A stretch of DNA of 64,000 nt, from assembly GCA_026388185.1 (NCBI GenBank), contig JAPLKG010000003.1, positions 22,871-86,870 on the forward strand, in the 5' to 3' direction. Positions 1 to 7,690 of this stretch are shown here, piece after piece; position 1 is the first letter of the stretch; every line of letters starts with the position of its first letter. Position numbers and translations under genes: made by a program. This stretch comes from Candidatus Eiseniibacteriota bacterium (lineage in GTDB: Bacteria; Eisenbacteria; RBG-16-71-46; JAFGJU01). A model generated the notes under the pieces. The model was not told the DNA's origin. It saw only the letters and a list, made by a program, of their open reading frames with translations, and ran no database searches.

Positions 1-136
1 ACATCCAAGCGCCAGTATGCTGGGGGCACGCATGGTTGAGGTGATAGTTTCTTCTACAAATGGGGCAGATATGATACCGATCGTATTCCTTAATTGCCCC
101 ACCGCATGCGGGGCATATCCTGGCTCCCACACTGCA

Positions 137-1279
137 TCACCTCGAGGCAATCCAAGCCTCTCCCACGGTATTTCCTTTACTAAACAAGACTCGAATCAAA
201 TGATTTGGAGGGATATGCAGAGATCTGAGAGAATATCCGTCTTCAAGTTCTTCTGTATACTTATCTGGAACGACTGCCAATGCCCCACAGGCAGGACAGC
301 AAGATCTCAGGAACTTCCCAAGCAGGCATGGCTGGATTGTGTGAGAGCCACCACATCCACGACAAACGACGGAGTACACTATCTGTTTGTCGTGTCTAAC
401 TTCTACCTCAGAGCATCCGAGGGCGGCTCGAAGCCTATTCTTGATCGAAAGAACATCATCGTCTAGGAGAGACTCTAGAAGGACTTTCGACTTGTCTGGC
501 GGAGGAACATGAGCAGGGCAATTTTCTTTTCTTGGCACTTCCCAGGTCAGGAATGCCCCGTTTTCTCCATCGAACCAGAAGAACACACTACTCCGGGCGG
601 AAGGACCTGAGTGCTTCAGATGAAGGATCTTAATGCACTCTTGAGCTGCAATGCCTCCCGCTATTGCGCCCGACGTAATGACCATGGGGATCTTGGGCTC
701 ATCTGGAAGCATTCCTATCTTTGAGCAGCTGTGTCTTTCCCATAGTTGCTGATACTCCCTTTTGGTCCAGCTGCATTCAATACATGCTCCGGATGGTGTG
801 GCAACGAATACACTGCTGACCAGACCACCTATCCCCGTATCAACTAGAGGCGTACCGTGTAGCCGACAGTACCTATTCACCCATAGTCGTGCCTCCAGAT
901 TATCTACAGTCAAAACGACACAGTCAAAGGAACTATATTCGAGGCTACCGAAATCATAGACGACATCGCGGTTCCAGCCTCTGGTTGTGATCCCTGGGGC
1001 AATCTCCTTGGCACGCCTGGCGGCTGTCTCCGATTTGGACTTGCCAATGTCCTCGGCCCGAAACAAAACACATCTGTTCAGATTCACTTCCTCAACCACA
1101 TCGCTGTCCAGAACGCTGATTTCTCCTACACCTGTAAGAGCAAGATTCTTGATCACCTCGTTGCCTGTAGTTCCCGCACCAACAACGAGGACACGACCTC
1201 CAGAGACGGCTTCCTGACGCCATCCTTTTATCATCTTCTGTCTTGTATACCTATTCGACATGAGCCTGATGTTCCTCAC
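137..1279 (-). CDS. E1-like adenylyltransferase of the ThiF/MoeB/HesA family (ubiquitin-activating-like), with a C-terminal Cys-rich zinc-ribbon-like extension
   Basis: The Rossmann nucleotide motif VLVVGAGTTGNEVIKNLALTGVGEISVLDSD...NLNRC is diagnostic of ThiF/MoeB/E1. CxxC pairs (CIEC, CRGC, CPAC) follow the adenylation domain. It is the last gene of the Ubl-E2-JAB-E1 operon and overlaps the JAB gene by about 28 nt. Confidence 0.85.
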   Translation of the reverse strand: MRNIRLMSNRYTRQKMIKGWRQEAVSGGRVLVVGAGTTGNEVIKNLALTGVGEISVLDSDVVEEVNLNRCVLFRAEDIGKSKSETAARRAKEIAPGITTRGWNRDVVYDFGSLEYSSFDCVVLTVDNLEARLWVNRYCRLHGTPLVDTGIGGLVSSVFVATPSGACIECSWTKREYQQLWERHSCSKIGMLPDEPKIPMVITSGAIAGGIAAQECIKILHLKHSGPSARSSVFFWFDGENGAFLTWEVPRKENCPAHVPPPDKSKVLLESLLDDDVLSIKNRLRAALGCSEVEVRHDKQIVYSVVCRGCGGSHTIQPCLLGKFLRSCCPACGALAVVPDKYTEELEDGYSLRSLHIPPNHLIRVLFSKGNTVGEAWIASR

Positions 1280-2516
1280 TGACTATGACTTGATACTGAT
1301 GTGTATCCAGAATGGCTCTTTCTCGGTGGGACCAAACTCTAAACCTTAGCTCTTGTGTTGCCAATGCGTTAACGGACGGCGAAGCAATCAGAAAGTAGTC
1401 ACCGCAATATTCCTCAAGAGCACCCAATTCGGGTGTGGGCGAGTCAAAAAACCATCGCTTGCGGCTTTTGGTGAGAGCAGCGGTCGTTTTGGCATTGCAA
1501 TATACCCCGATCATCTGTAGACCTTTTCCGGGGTGTCCCGACGGTAAGGACGCCTCAGAGTGCCGAGACAGTGTGTTCGAAGACTGCGCGGCAAATCCTC
1601 TAATGTATTTTCGGTACTCTTCAATCCTTTCCAACCCTAAGGCCAGGGAATCCACTAGATTTATTAGGCTGCAGCCCGCAAGATGATCAGTATACCCAAA
1701 GAGCAGCCCACCACTTTGAGAGGAATGCATTTCCTGCCACAGCTTCTTGTTGACACGCACAGGAACAATCACCATTGGCATAGGGAAATTGAGTCCGGTC
1801 GGCCCGATTTTAAGCAGGTTATGCAACCGCGAGCTCGCTTGCGCTATCTCCTGTCCGAGGTCTCTTCCCAGCCGTCTCGCAAGTGCCTCGTCGATTTCGG
1901 GGCGTTTTTCCACAAGAATGACATTACCCCTTGCTACTCTCACCTGTGTGCCTTCGTTGTTCCACCCAAAGAAACCAATCCATTCTAAGTCTGACTCGAA
2001 GCCTTGCGACCTGACTCGACTCGGATCGACTACAGCTGCGACCTGATATTGCTCGGGATGATAGTCAGAGAAGTTCTTTGTGTCGGTCCCGGAGAAGAAT
2101 ATGCCCAGTTTCGGATGCGAATGATAATACCCTACAAGGATCGTGCCCTCTCTTAGCCGAACCGCCTCAACGTCTCTGAAGCTCTCGGGAACCATTCTCA
2201 CGTGGGTTGGAGTGGAGACGTAGAGAGCACGAATCGCTCTTTCGACGTAGGTAATCCGTACCCCACTATCGGCATCCATGGCAGGAAAACCCAAGAGATA
2301 CCCACCGACCTCATGGTGCATTTCTCCTGAGGCATGATAATACATTTCTCGCAACGCACCTTTTTGGATGAGAAGCAGCGGTAGGTCTTCACGTGGGAGC
2401 AAGTCGGAGGCTCGTACGAATCGTCGCTCATCATATCTTGTGACTTTGCCAACCCTCACAGCCTGATCATCATCCTCGCGACCTGTCAATCCAAGCACGT
2501 AAGCGAGCCATATCAA
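1251..2516 (-). CDS. JAB/MPN+ (JAMM) metallopeptidase, deubiquitinase-like, with a roughly 250 aa C-terminal extension
   Basis: The JAMM signature HSHPKLGIFFSGTDT (H-x-H-x7-S-x2-D) is present, with an upstream Glu in HASGEMHHEVGGYLLG. A second degenerate GGLLFGY segment lies downstream. The listed start overlaps the E2 gene, so the true start may be a downstream GTG or ATG. Confidence 0.8.
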   Translation of the reverse strand: MIWLAYVLGLTGREDDDQAVRVGKVTRYDERRFVRASDLLPREDLPLLLIQKGALREMYYHASGEMHHEVGGYLLGFPAMDADSGVRITYVERAIRALYVSTPTHVRMVPESFRDVEAVRLREGTILVGYYHSHPKLGIFFSGTDTKNFSDYHPEQYQVAAVVDPSRVRSQGFESDLEWIGFFGWNNEGTQVRVARGNVILVEKRPEIDEALARRLGRDLGQEIAQASSRLHNLLKIGPTGLNFPMPMVIVPVRVNKKLWQEMHSSQSGGLLFGYTDHLAGCSLINLVDSLALGLERIEEYRKYIRGFAAQSSNTLSRHSEASLPSGHPGKGLQMIGVYCNAKTTAALTKSRKRWFFDSPTPELGALEEYCGDYFLIASPSVNALATQELRFRVWSHRERAILDTHQYQVIVSEEHQAHVE

Positions 2517-3015
2517 TAGGCCTTATGTAACGTGAAAGGTTTCCGCGATTTCTCTTCCACCACTCCATCGCTCCAGGATTCGCAGGAGAGTTGGCGTCTA
2601 TCTTCCACATACTACCTTCTTCTTGATTGTATTGAAGATACTCAATGATGCCGCGGATCCAGTCCGCAAGAGCCAGATCCGGCTGAGGGGTGCCACCCGA
2701 CCCCCAACACAAACGCCCGTCGGGCCAAATGTGTGGGTGAAAAGGAATTGGGGAGCGAAATCTCAAGCCAGGCACAGCGGACCATGGGTACCCTGATGCA
2801 ATCTCAGCCGCGACCAAAAATGTGTCACCAATGGCTGAAGAGCCGAGAGATGGATTGCCGATGAGACTCTGTATTCCCTTGATGGTCAGTTCGAATCGGC
2901 TGAAGTCTAAGCTCTTCCGCTCAACTTCAAATCGAAGGGGAAGGATGGAGTCTGCATCCAAGATACTTTTGATCTTCAATAGGTGTCGAATTTCTGTATT
3001 AAACCTCTCATCCAT
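2470..3015 (-). CDS. E2-like ubiquitin-conjugating enzyme homolog (UBC fold)
   Basis: The motif FHPHIWPDGRLCWG resembles the eukaryotic/prokaryotic E2 HPN...C active-site region, with the Cys 10 residues after HP. It is about 180 aa and sits between the Ubl and JAB genes. Confidence 0.65.
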   Translation of the reverse strand: MDERFNTEIRHLLKIKSILDADSILPLRFEVERKSLDFSRFELTIKGIQSLIGNPSLGSSAIGDTFLVAAEIASGYPWSAVPGLRFRSPIPFHPHIWPDGRLCWGSGGTPQPDLALADWIRGIIEYLQYNQEEGSMWKIDANSPANPGAMEWWKRNRGNLSRYIRPIDMARLRAWIDRSRG

Positions 3016-3086
3016 AAGCAGCCCCTTTGAACAATCAAGGTTATTCTCTGTCCGCGGATCTATTCGGACAACTACTCATCACAGGG

Positions 3087-3335
3087 CTAGCCCCCAACCT
3101 CCATTCTGGCTAGGGTTAGCTTGTCTCCGCTTTGCACCAATTTGTCCAGCGTTGCATCCCCACTGATTGGCTTACCATCTGAACCCAGCAATTTGTATGA
3201 ACCCTCTGCTGGCAACCCCAGTTGAGGGGCCACCAACGTACATACCTGCTGCGCATTGTCACCCGGAAATATTTCCACTTCCGCAGAAGCTGTACCGCCA
3301 GCCCTAACTATGGTTACCTTCTTGCCCTCTGCCAT
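3087..3335 (-). CDS. Ubiquitin-like beta-grasp protein ending in a native C-terminal Gly-Gly
   Basis: The 82 aa protein ends ...LTLARMEVGG followed directly by a stop codon. A strong Shine-Dalgarno (caagaGGAGGcagaaATG) precedes the start. It is the first gene of the operon. Confidence 0.75.
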   Translation of the reverse strand: MAEGKKVTIVRAGGTASAEVEIFPGDNAQQVCTLVAPQLGLPAEGSYKLLGSDGKPISGDATLDKLVQSGDKLTLARMEVGG

Positions 3336-3898
3336 TTCTGCCTCCTCTTGTACGATTTCATGTTATTGAACGCCAAGACTCCATCTCCGCGCCCTTCAAA
3401 CTCCAGGGAAAGGCAAAATAGTAAAGCCCCATCAGAACCGATGAGACCTAGTCCATTTTATGAAGACGCGCGAATCATCCAGGACCAACAAAGCGTTCGT
3501 GCCTCCACTTATGTTCTTCTCACCAAAACATCAGTTGCCTTCGATTTATGTAGCACAAATTGTATCACCAAAGTACCTACCGTGCAAGCAGAAACATCTG
3601 GTGGCGCAGCGGCCGCTCATTCCACGAATAGTCAAGACCCAGTAGACGCTCTTCTCACAGTTAGGGAAATCTGAACCCGAGGACTTATCGAAACCTGGGT
3701 CATGCGAGTTTGCCGGCTGCCCCCCACAAGTGACCCGGCCTTCCAGTCAACCGGCTTCTTTCTCACAACAGATTCGCGTCCACCCGCGGATACATTTCGT
3801 GTCTCGCGGATGGAAAGAAGGCCGCCACAGAATTGGGCGGACCCTTACAGAGGCCCTCCACCCTCAAGCTGTAGATAGAGGAGCACTCCGCGGCGTCC

Positions 3899-6307
3899 TC
3901 ACTTCGGTGGGTTTGTAATGACCTTCACCGGCTTTTTGGCATCCTCATGTGGCCACGGCTCAAGCTCTTGAATGTGCCTGCCAAGTTCGGGATAGGAATC
4001 CAATCTCGGCACATTTCGCATGGTTACTTGGCCGAGGGAGATATCGTGAAATCGAGACGCCAAAATTTCTATGCTGCGGATCCCATCAAATGGCATGGCA
4101 TTGTAGAATACCCTGAGTACATTTTGGTCGATGCTCGAGATTGGTCCGAAAACTCGATTGAGGAAATTAACGCCGTGGTAAACCAGTTCCGTTCGTCGGC
4201 GCTTGCTTTCAGGGTCGCTCCGAACCATCCTTTTCATCAGTACCTTTCGTCTTTCTTCGTCCTGCTCTGCATGAAGCTTTTCCCTACGGTCACCCCCAAA
4301 GAAATCCAACTCAATAATTGGTCCATTTATCCTGGACAAAAAGTCGCGCCCCTTCGATTCGACTCTCAGGTGGTTGAGAGGTTTAGTAGAAGCAAATACC
4401 CAGACGCAGGGTTCGATACGGTATGTGGTCCCTTCCGATGCGAAAGAGCCGTCCCATATCGGGCCCAAAAGAAGACCCATAGCTGTGTGGCTCTCAATCT
4501 GGGCATCTATTTCATCCACAAAAACGAGAACGCGGGCCCGTGTACGATTCTGAACAGACATTATCTGTTTAAGCGAGTTCATTAGATCCTGATTAGAGGC
4601 CATCTGGGCGACCGAGAAACTGAGATGTTGAAAATCAAAATGCTGGGCTAGACACTTCGCCAGAGTGCTTTTCCCCCATCCCGGTTCCGCGAGAAGAAGG
4701 CAATTAAAGGGGTACCGTGGATCTCGTTCATTTCCATACGCCTGCAGCCGGGTTATCAATTTGTTTATCTCAGATCGCTTATCTCCACCGGGACAGATGT
4801 AATCCTTGAGCGTTCCGTGAGCGCGCCAGAGATGAATCTGCTTTTCCCCGCCTACCGTAACAACCCCTTGGCCAATCGATGAACGATTCCACTCGTGCCA
4901 GCTCGCCAGATAAGTGAGCCGGTGAGACAGTCTCTGGCGGGGCCCGACCACCGCTGGAGGCCAGGGTGGCCTGTAGATCGCTTGGTCGAAGGGTCCAGTT
5001 AGATTAGAGGGCTTCTTTTCCAACCAAGCCTTCGTACAGCTGTCAGTCCAAAGGTACGCGTTTCGGAGCGCCCAAGAGCACGCACTGCTCATAGAGTTCC
5101 GCAGAGGGACAAACATCTGGTCCCAGTATACAAGCGAAGAAAAGAAAACTGTGGAGCGTCCAACGCAGATAGGTTTCTTTTCACCTGGCGCGCTGGCGAT
5201 GTTGACGAGATAAGCGTCATCTTTCTCGCGGCTCCGATTAGAGTGCCTACCCCGGACCCTTTTTGTGCCTGTAGTGCTCGTCGCAGCAATCACTGTATCA
5301 TCCTCGAACAAGAGGGCAGCATTCTCCGGCTTTACTCGAACAGAGTGGATTGTCTTAGTGTGGAGATACTTCTTCAGCCCAAGGAGATCACCCAGGACTT
5401 CCAAAGCTGCATGCCCTAGGACGGTCGGTCCGTGGCGCCAGACGCGTACCCCGTATGTATACTCCAGCAACTGTTCATCGGTAAACGTCAGCCGCGGTTT
5501 CTTCCTCGCTTTCTTCAGTTCGTCCATCCACGTTGCGGACTCTAGCTTGCTCCGAATGTACCATTTAGCCTTCGGAAAGGCCCTATGGAGCCGTTTGACC
5601 AGCTCATTGTCGATCACTCCATAGCCGTGATCGACCGCAACAATCGCGTCAACCTCAGTTTTGGGAATGGATTTCTTGATCTCACCCACGATGCCGTAGT
5701 TCTTGTACTGATTGTCGAGATCCAGTTTCCAATCGAAACGATATTGAAGACGAGGTTGATCACTGCCAAACCCTTCATAAAGACGGACCAAGTGGTTGGA
5801 AGACGTATTTGTTGCGGCTTTGGGGCAGTTTGTCTTAACTAGATTGAACATCGACCGCTGGTAGCAGCACTCAGTTTGAGTCCTGAGATGCGGACACCAC
5901 CTCTTGGCCTTGCTATTCCAGTGCGGAGTCGTGAGACCGGATAAACGGTACGGTGTGAGCCCTATGCTCACATCTTTCTTGTCACACAGCAGACACATAA
6001 GGAGATTGCTATCACTTGGGTTCCATGCCGTAAGCAAAAGCAGTTCGCATTTCTCCACCATTGAAGGAACCATGGATTTCCCCGCTGAGACAGTGCGATG
6101 TTGAAGACCCGGACCCCGTAGGGTGCGCCAAACACTAGCTGCTCCGCAAAAACTTATGATCCGGCAATCGGCGTTTGGCAGATTGCTAATGTAGTGTTCC
6201 TTGCCAACGTTGTAGCTGTGGTAGATGTCTCCGCGCGACATCAGCCAGTTCTCATCGATGAAGGAATCACCAACAATGAGCACAACGCGCTTCTGGTTGG
6301 ATGGCAT
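3899..6307 (-). CDS. Fusion protein: N-terminal PfkB/RfaE-domain-I-like carbohydrate-kinase fold plus C-terminal P-loop NTPase (STAND/AAA+-like)
   Basis: The N-terminus has VVLIVGDSFIDENW, CGAASVW and AIVAVDHGYG, which resemble the HldE/PfkB motifs VGDvmLDrYW, GGAANVA and SDYaKG. The C-terminal half has Walker A LLAEPGWGKSTLAKCL and Walker B RVLVFVDEID. The ORF track starts at a GTG at 6367, but a GGAGG Shine-Dalgarno precedes the in-frame ATG about 60 nt downstream (MPSNQKR...), so the start is called near 6307. Confidence 0.6.
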   Translation of the reverse strand: MPSNQKRVVLIVGDSFIDENWLMSRGDIYHSYNVGKEHYISNLPNADCRIISFCGAASVWRTLRGPGLQHRTVSAGKSMVPSMVEKCELLLLTAWNPSDSNLLMCLLCDKKDVSIGLTPYRLSGLTTPHWNSKAKRWCPHLRTQTECCYQRSMFNLVKTNCPKAATNTSSNHLVRLYEGFGSDQPRLQYRFDWKLDLDNQYKNYGIVGEIKKSIPKTEVDAIVAVDHGYGVIDNELVKRLHRAFPKAKWYIRSKLESATWMDELKKARKKPRLTFTDEQLLEYTYGVRVWRHGPTVLGHAALEVLGDLLGLKKYLHTKTIHSVRVKPENAALLFEDDTVIAATSTTGTKRVRGRHSNRSREKDDAYLVNIASAPGEKKPICVGRSTVFFSSLVYWDQMFVPLRNSMSSACSWALRNAYLWTDSCTKAWLEKKPSNLTGPFDQAIYRPPWPPAVVGPRQRLSHRLTYLASWHEWNRSSIGQGVVTVGGEKQIHLWRAHGTLKDYICPGGDKRSEINKLITRLQAYGNERDPRYPFNCLLLAEPGWGKSTLAKCLAQHFDFQHLSFSVAQMASNQDLMNSLKQIMSVQNRTRARVLVFVDEIDAQIESHTAMGLLLGPIWDGSFASEGTTYRIEPCVWVFASTKPLNHLRVESKGRDFLSRINGPIIELDFFGGDRREKLHAEQDEERRKVLMKRMVRSDPESKRRRTELVYHGVNFLNRVFGPISSIDQNVLRVFYNAMPFDGIRSIEILASRFHDISLGQVTMRNVPRLDSYPELGRHIQELEPWPHEDAKKPVKVITNPPK

Positions 6308-6370: not shown

Positions 6371-7690
6371 TCAAAGATCAGACCTTTTCCTTGCCCACCG
6401 CACAATGGGTCCGAGGACCAGTCTGGCGACAAACTTGGTAACCGTACTGCTGGAAACAAACCCTGCCAAAGATGGGGAAACAAAATAATAGAGTCTGACT
6501 GCGAATGCACCGAGGCGGGAGTGTAATAACACTTCATCCCGAAATCTACTTAGTGTCGCCACCTCTGATGCCAGCGGAGAGTCAAACGCAGCAGTTGCGA
6601 TGAAACAGCGCGAACCTACACCTTCCACCTTGTACAGGTCCATACCCGGGGGCTCGAACTTCAGCACTATGAGTATTGTTGTTTCCCCAGCCAATCTTCT
6701 GGCCTCATCGAGAACTGCCAGGTCATCCGGAGCGAAGGAGCCGACTAGCTTAGTTCGGAAGTTGCCTTTGTACATGGCTGCTGGTTTTCCTTCTCTCAGA
6801 ATCGTGACGCGATCCTTCCTGTATTGGCTCTCGAGTTCGAGTATGCCTTCCCCAACTTCCTTGATTCTGGAGTTTCTGGCAACCTCTGTCTCCGCTGTGC
6901 CAATCGATTCCAACAGTCGTACGGTATTCCTGCGCGACACTTCATTCGTGTCGTGACTGAGACAAGTTTTGAGATCCTGAACAGCCTTGTCTTTCTCCCC
7001 CATGAGCAGCCACAGGTAGCCTCGATTGAAGTAAGTCGGAGGGTGATCAGGAGCCAGAGCAATGGCCCTCTCAAATGCGTCTAGTGCGAGCTCGTAGTAC
7101 TCTCCAGCTTTCGCCTCCTGCCCGGATTTGGTAAGCTCTGCCCCCATCGTCTTGTACACGTTTCCTAGACTGTTGAGTGGATGCGGCATCTTTGGCGATG
7201 AGGACACTGCCCGTCTTGCCCACTCCAATGCCAAATCGTACTTCCCTTTGTGGGTGTATATGATGGCGAGGGAATTCATCGCATCAGCAGCGTCGGGCGA
7301 TTCTTCAACACCATATTCGAGAGCCCAAGCCGCGAGATCCTCCTCACCGAGTCTTGCAAGCTGCATTCCCATATGCACCAACATGCGAGCAAGAGGCCAG
7401 TCGTCAAAATCGGCGGGATGCTTGCACTTCGCTCTTTGCAGAATAGAAGTGGCGCGACTAACAAGCTCAAGCCCCGGAATTCGGCGAAGAACGTCAAGTT
7501 TATCCTCGTCGCTCGGAAATTCCTTGAGGATCTTGCTCCGAAAGCGGGCTTTCTCCGCTTTCGAGAGGTTTGTGAAGTGCTGCACTTCCTTCTTCAGTGC
7601 GCGTTCCATATCAATCAGCTGAATTGTCGACAGACCTTGCGTTTGTTGGTGAATGCTGTCGATTTCGTCCATCTTGGATCCTCCATTCAC
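6371..7690 (-). CDS. TPR-repeat protein with a conserved C-terminal CFIATAAF...LSRFRD module
   Basis: Multiple 34-aa TPR-like repeats are present (AIIYTHKGKYDLALEWARRAV, LGNVYKTMG, YYELALDAFERAIALAPDHPPTYFNRGYLWLLMGEKDKAV). Its stop is 3 nt from the start of the downstream kinase/NTPase gene, implying translational coupling. Confidence 0.7.
   Translation of the reverse strand: MNGGSKMDEIDSIHQQTQGLSTIQLIDMERALKKEVQHFTNLSKAEKARFRSKILKEFPSDEDKLDVLRRIPGLELVSRATSILQRAKCKHPADFDDWPLARMLVHMGMQLARLGEEDLAAWALEYGVEESPDAADAMNSLAIIYTHKGKYDLALEWARRAVSSSPKMPHPLNSLGNVYKTMGAELTKSGQEAKAGEYYELALDAFERAIALAPDHPPTYFNRGYLWLLMGEKDKAVQDLKTCLSHDTNEVSRRNTVRLLESIGTAETEVARNSRIKEVGEGILELESQYRKDRVTILREGKPAAMYKGNFRTKLVGSFAPDDLAVLDEARRLAGETTILIVLKFEPPGMDLYKVEGVGSRCFIATAAFDSPLASEVATLSRFRDEVLLHSRLGAFAVRLYYFVSPSLAGFVSSSTVTKFVARLVLGPIVRWARKRSDL

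Follow-up and report, generated by a model that had tools for sequence, protein, structure and literature searches.

A gene cluster for ubiquitin conjugation was described in Candidatus Caldiarchaeum subterraneum (Nunoura 2011, PMC3082918; Hennell James 2017, PMC5654768; Fuchs 2018, PMC6043591). The archaeal genes are ordered ubl-e2-e1-srfp, where srfp encodes a small RING finger protein, with rpn11 adjacent. The cascade has been reconstituted biochemically, and its ubiquitin (Ub) is made with a 9-aa propeptide (PMC5654768). Bacterial operons with the composition Ubl-E2-JAB-E1-Prok-RING_1, where Ubl is a ubiquitin-like modifier, are among the predictions of Burroughs, Iyer and Aravind (2011, Mol Biosyst 7:2261).

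Other bacterial systems differ in their parts. The BilABCD systems (types I and II) carry out anti-phage ubiquitination (Millman 2022; Hör 2024; Chambers 2024, PMC10557695). BilA has two beta-grasps (type I) or continues past a conserved Gly into residues that have to be trimmed off by BilC (type II); type II BilB has a CEHH motif; BilD combines inactive and active adenylation domains (IAD and AAD) with a helical CYS domain and has no ubiquitin-fold domain (UFD); and Bil systems have no E3. Bub systems are oxyester systems whose E1 and E2 lack a catalytic Cys, with the fusions BubAB, BubCD, and BubBD and a DUF6527 protease. Cap2 of CBASS is an E2-E1 fusion that occurs alongside a CD-NTase.

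We analyzed a stretch of 64,000 nt ("the window") from a MAG of a Candidatus Eiseniibacteriota bacterium (GCA_026388185.1, contig JAPLKG010000003.1, positions 22,871-86,870 of the forward strand). We think it probable that five conserved genes at one end of the window specify a complete Ubl conjugation cascade of the eukaryotic or Caldiarchaeum type in a bacterium. We place the operon in the Caldiarchaeum-type class, known from archaea and predicted in 2011, and not in the Bil anti-phage family.

A five-gene operon

The features of this part of the window are as follows.

1..130, minus strand: RING-like gene, first 43 codons; fifth gene of the operon, running past the window end
137..1261, minus strand: E1, 374 aa (ORF 137-1279, start called at 1261)
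1251..2498, minus strand: JAB, 415 aa, JAMM/MPN+ (ORF 1251-2516, start called at 2498)
2470..3015, minus strand: E2, 181 aa, UBC-type, FHPHIWPDGRLCWG
3087..3335, minus strand: Ubl, 82-aa ORF, single beta-grasp with a GG end
3336..3898, minus strand: non-coding leader, 563 nt, upstream of the Ubl gene
3899..6307, minus strand: divergent AAA+ ATPase, 802 aa as called, Pfam AAA
6371..7672, minus strand: TPR and CFI-box-CTERM protein, 433 aa as called

An earlier note on this DNA described four consecutive minus-strand genes, overlapping or close together, in the range 137-3335. The ORF list places Ubl, E2, JAB, and E1 there, all on the minus strand, and their coordinates and spacing agree with the note: the Ubl-E2 gap is 71 nt, E2 and JAB overlap by 29 nt, and JAB and E1 overlap by 11 nt, all of which is operon-like. 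A GAGGAGG Shine-Dalgarno sequence lies 5-6 nt upstream of the ATG of Ubl. The range given in the note left out a fifth gene, which starts at 130, just 6 nt past the E1 stop codon, and encodes 337 aa on the full contig, so that the order is Ubl, E2, JAB, E1, RING-like membrane protein. The identical gene order was found again in 10 other loci, and together with the matches of E1 to ThiF (E = 5.6e-47) and of JAB to the Pfam family Prok-JAB (E = 1.7e-12), this puts the cluster far beyond chance.

The modifier, the E2, and the peptidase

Ubl ends exactly in Gly81-Gly82 (...ARMEVGG*, codons 3090-3095), as the earlier note had said. The two glycines are invariant among 9 homologs, some of which have 2-13 further residues past them (about 20 in the Chloroflexota Ubl, L008). 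The note had also proposed a beta-grasp, and the AF2 model (pLDDT 83.5, topology b-b-a-b-b-b) has this fold. In a Foldseek search of the PDB, C. subterraneum ubiquitin took the first three places (E = 4e-6, TM 0.76, 32-33% identity), and SUMO, Ub, NEDD8, and ISG15 came after it; none of the 50 PDB matches listed for the model was a ThiS or MoaD chain. On this model, Ubl is predicted to be a beta-grasp modifier related to Ub and not to ThiS/MoaD.

The HPH...C motif noted earlier in the E2 corresponds to H93-P94-H95 and a putative catalytic Cys103 (codon 2707-2709), and all four residues are invariant in 17 homologs. Most E2s have HPN instead. The UBC fold that the note had suggested for this protein is present in a confident AlphaFold model, with canonical catalytic geometry, and the model points to a UBC protein of the PF00179 type that carries both the HPx motif and the putative catalytic Cys. 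The AF2 models were built on shallow alignments (17 and 9 sequences).

In JAB, the JAMM/MPN+ domain covers approximately residues 45-200, with E63, H126, H128, S136, and D139, and these JAMM residues are invariant in 9 orthologs. The motif had been noticed earlier as HSHPx7SGTD; it is real, but the spacing was off by one, because it reads HSHP-x6-SGTD, which matches the canonical H-x-H-x7-S-x2-D. The best sequence match in the PDB is the Rpn11 homolog of C. subterraneum (6fjv, E = 1.8e-6), and CSN5 and Rpn11 come next; together with the invariant residues, this identifies JAB as a JAMM peptidase of the Rpn11-like kind. The C-terminal domain of JAB (about 190 aa) may be a degenerate second MPN domain: the profiles of the N- and C-terminal domains align in register over their full length, but with an E value of only 0.013. 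A search of the PDB with the profile of the C-terminal domain gave no match, and the domain is missing from one locus (L012).

The E1

The earlier description of a ThiF/MoeB-like E1 with CxxC zinc motifs holds: besides the ThiF match, CIEC, CPAH, CRGC, and CPAC are all present. The protein has a single Rossmann adenylation domain (GAGTTG at 28-33, NLNR, DNLEAR), and both halves of UBA1 align onto residues 2-156, which implies one adenylation domain. Its best match in the PDB is the active adenylation domain of eukaryotic UBA1 (1e-30), with weaker matches to SAE2 and UBA3 (1e-22) and to MccB and ThiF (1e-15). A zinc site (CxxC...CxxH) lies at 160-163 and 248-251, and about 30 residues separate the CxxC from the next core strand. 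Cys179, conserved within [HY]SC[SL]K (codon 725-727), is the candidate catalytic residue.

The C-terminal domain carries an inserted CxxC...CPxC zinc ribbon (300-325), which matches the zinc ribbon of eS27 (E = 0.06-0.09). The profile of this domain aligns with ubiquitin in two colinear pieces (11-36 with Ub 10-35, and 91-117 with Ub 48-74), although the E value against mono-ubiquitin is only about 0.1. Profile matches at this level suggest that the C-terminus is UFD-like.

A RING-like fifth gene

In all nine loci that extend past E1, a RING-like gene lies directly 3' of it. The gene that begins in the window encodes an N-terminal eight-ligand RING-like zinc finger (aa 6-38, window 17-115). 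Past the window end come a linker, one transmembrane (TM) helix (aa 119-137 in a hydropathy scan), and a C-terminal domain, about 190 aa long, which is predicted to lie outside the cytoplasm. The ligands of the finger are C-x2-C-x12-C-x2-C-x4-H-x2-[H/C]-x1-2-C-x2-H; several family members have a C4HC3-like (RINGv-like) ligand type. None of seven family proteins reached the gathering cut-off of Prok-RING_1 (PF14446, 29.1 bits), with a best score of 17.1 bits (E = 0.005) for one of the seven, and the finger scores about equally on zinc-ribbon models. A sister operon encodes a Prok-RING_1 finger to which ligands 1-6 can be aligned in register (hhalign, E = 1e-3). Because the loop between ligands 6 and 7 has only 1-2 residues, versus about 10 in RINGs, it may lack the helix with which RINGs help to bind the E2. 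We regard the protein as the candidate membrane-anchored E3.

RING genes occur in duplicate, and what follows the finger at the C-terminus varies by locus: a single TM helix plus an unassigned domain, FN3, multi-TM, or CFI-box. An additional E2 and an additional RING protein are retained in this genome. The window and the L001 sequence are 100% identical over 10,232 nt. Decayed copies occur as well: an additional E2 (E2') with an E1 remnant in L001, and a RING gene disrupted by an IS in a Blastocatellia locus (L003).

Eukaryotes have pathways with membrane-embedded RING E3s, such as MARCH/RINGv and the Hrd1/Doa10 pathways of ERAD. By analogy, the protein described here might likewise tether a cytosolic RING-type finger to the membrane and work with a UBC E2. 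The likeness is confined to the finger as far as demonstrated homology goes, and, unlike in eukaryotes, the operon has no conserved Cdc48-like partner.

Comparison with the archaeal and sister operons

The C. subterraneum operon resembles this one in the order Ubl-E2-(JAB)-E1-RING and part by part. Its ubiquitin is the closest structural and sequence match of Ubl among the matches listed, its Rpn11 homolog is the closest PDB match of JAB, and its E2 is UBC-type. Its E1, like the one here, contains one adenylation domain; it ends in a Ub-like domain, for which the matches at E ~0.1 suggest a counterpart in the present E1. As far as ligand 6, its srfp and the finger in the window share the same zinc-ligand spacing. 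The full srfp pattern, C-x2-C-x11-C-x2-C-x4-H-x2-C-x10-C-x2-C, differs in its 10-residue loop between ligands 6 and 7, whereas the finger in the window has the short loop and His as the last ligand. Also, srfp is small and soluble, while the bacterial finger is joined to transmembrane segments and to C-terminal domains that vary. The other differences are that the present operon is bacterial, that JAB lies inside it and has the extra C-terminal domain, that Ubl is made mature, and that the E2 has HPH.

A sister family (L010 and L011) is an example of the operons predicted by Burroughs and colleagues, with YukD-Ubl, UQ_con, JAB, and ThiF, and Prok-RING_1 further on. The two families share their components and gene order, an E1 C-terminal domain with a CxxC...CPxC insert, and RING fingers that align through ligand 6, and the E2 family of the sister is the nearest neighbor of the present E2 (E = 2.8e-13). 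In the sister family, the Ubl is YukD-like, the E2 has HPN, JAB is short (217 aa), two coiled-coil proteins are encoded, and the RING protein is soluble and coiled-coil and keeps the normal C4HC3 ligands; the present operon differs in its ubiquitin-like Ubl, truncated finger, and membrane-anchored RING protein.

Genomic context and alternative explanations

The gene cluster is rare among bacteria. We saw the family in MAGs of Eisenbacteria, Blastocatellia, and Chloroflexota, a sporadic and cross-phylum distribution, and in the window it lies on an island of lower GC (0.50-0.52, versus 0.56-0.64 in the flank). The 563-nt leader is likely to be the promoter region of the operon. Within it we found no minus-strand ORF of at least 50 aa, no sigma-70-like site in a consensus scan, and no Rfam match; a terminator-like hairpin is present at 3449-3424, and the number of such hairpins is no more than shuffled sequences predict.

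The cascade could operate as we propose and serve against phages or other mobile elements, in which case the variable, outward-facing parts of the RING proteins would sense contact with phage or act as decoys for it. All characterized bacterial Ubl-conjugation operons (CBASS Cap2 and Bil) defend against phage, and Bub is predicted to. The sporadic, mobile distribution and the duplicated RING genes with differing C-terminal domains are what such a role would lead one to expect, and CHAT and restriction-modification genes are found in the vicinity of two copies. Against this, the neighbors in the window and at most other loci are ordinary (ABC-F, histidine kinases, RND efflux, and amino-acid ABC transport), no consistent defense-island context was found across the neighborhoods examined, and PADLOC detected no system. 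We regard an anti-phage role as possible, though on balance we lean against it.

The mobile distribution would also fit the addiction hypothesis that Aravind and colleagues stated for mobile E1/E2/(E3)/JAB operons (PMC3417536). The operon would then be a selfish element, a protein-level restriction-modification system in which the modification destabilizes host proteins and JAB reverses it, so that the cell becomes addicted. Ligase and de-ligase are always coupled in this family; however, the argument is purely conceptual, and the decayed copies (L001 and L003) have lost parts without evident lethality. This makes the explanation quite unlikely in our view.

A further proposal takes in the AAA+ gene, which lies directly upstream on the operon's strand and in the same low-GC island. 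A TM RING E3 would tag membrane proteins and the AAA+ protein would unfold or extract them, giving ERAD-like quality control, for which an Rpn11-like deubiquitinase (DUB) and the membrane anchor from the hydropathy scan would be suitable. The ATPase matches Pfam AAA (E = 1.2e-7; Walker A and B at approximately 550-625), and its PDB matches are to the classical AAA clade (the FtsH/paraplegin type, with paraplegin at 0.005, VAT, Rpt6, and Msp1), but these are weak (E = 0.005-0.1) and span Walker A to Walker B only. Moreover, the leader and its hairpin separate the AAA+ and Ubl genes, and neither the AAA+ gene nor the TPR gene (6371..7672) has a counterpart at any other family locus. The AAA+ ATPase is possibly an accessory specific to this genome and not a conserved part of the system, and we consider the ERAD-like proposal very doubtful. 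The TPR protein is another possible accessory: besides TPR families, it matches CFI_box_CTERM (NF041770, E = 3.8e-20, above the cut-off), and in the Blastocatellia locus (L003, 2734-3249) a RING-like finger is fused to a CFI-box with 43% identity to residues 362-432 of the TPR protein.

That the operon is a BilABCD member, attaching Ubl to structural proteins of phages with no E3 involved, is highly improbable, even though the earlier note had called the architecture Bil-type and the order Ubl-E2-DUB-E1 bears out that part of the claim. The four analogous parts, the JAMM DUB, and the thioester-type cysteines of E1 and E2 are shared with Bil. Also in favor of this view are the sporadic distribution, the low-GC island, and a type IIG restriction-modification gene and transposases near the Blastocatellia copy. 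The protein families do not agree. PADLOC, which the note had suggested running, gave no match to BilA, BilB, or BilC, and only a partial match of E1 to BilD (E = 1.1e-6). We rejected Ubl as BilA (it is a single 82-aa beta-grasp ending exactly in GG), the E2 as a BilB-family protein, and the E1 as BilD (one adenylation domain in 374 aa, about 30 residues from the CxxC to the next core strand where BilD has its helical CYS domain, and a C-terminus that may be UFD-like), and the RING-like gene after E1 does not fit a gene set that lacks an E3. Assignments to Bub (types I and II) and to CBASS Cap2 were rejected as well.

Finally, a sulfur-carrier system of the MoaD/ThiS and MoeB/ThiF type, for cofactor or thiocarboxylate chemistry, would account for a GG-ending beta-grasp and for the match of E1 to TIGR02356 (7.7e-34), but we find it scarcely credible: that score is below the model's cut-off and all ThiF/MoeB NCBIfam scores are far below theirs, E1 has UBA1 as a closer relative than either ThiF or MoeB, Ub and SUMO are matched by the Ubl model with no ThiS or MoaD chain among the 50 matches listed, the operon conserves a UBC E2, a JAMM peptidase, and a RING-like gene, and cysteine, molybdopterin, and thiamine genes do not recur in the neighborhoods examined, where a TusA gene in L006 is the single exception. 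The note's preference for a conjugation operon over a sulfur carrier, which hinged on the folds of the 181-aa and 82-aa proteins and on the neighborhood, is supported.

Proposed mechanism and implications

We observed the folds and family relationships of Ubl, E2, JAB, and E1, the conservation of their catalytic residues, and the conserved synteny with the RING-like gene. From these we infer the steps of the conjugation cascade, along with the E3 role of the finger, its membrane topology, and the targets. E1, probably a homodimer by analogy with other single-domain E1s, would adenylate Gly82 of the ready-made 82-aa Ubl, which would then pass as a thioester to Cys179, a residue that closely follows the crossover-loop zinc site. 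The E2 would be recruited by the UFD-like domain at the C-terminus of E1, and Ubl would move onto Cys103 of the E2. The RING-like finger, predicted to face the cytoplasm from its membrane-anchored protein, would bind E2~Ubl and steer Ubl onto amino groups of proteins that lie along the membrane's inner face. The Rpn11-like JAMM peptidase would take the tag off; in relatives with residues past the GG, it would also mature the Ubl precursor.

A mobile system for conflict or defense, or one for membrane surveillance, would be consistent with the sporadic cross-phylum spread, the island of low GC, and the way in which the RING proteins diversify in their C-terminal domains. A more specific idea, which we put forward as rather unlikely, is that the RING proteins are transmembrane "receptor" ligases. 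Their variable domain outside the cytoplasm (unassigned, FN3, multi-TM, or CFI-box) would detect something happening at the envelope, for instance damage or the arrival of a phage, and the minimal cytoplasmic finger would trigger discharge of E2~Ubl onto proteins at the membrane. One E1 would serve several E2/E3 pairs, given the additional E2 and RING protein of this genome. If true, this would be a hierarchical, signal-gated bacterial ubiquitin network, which in this genome might couple to the AAA+ unfoldase in an ERAD-like manner.

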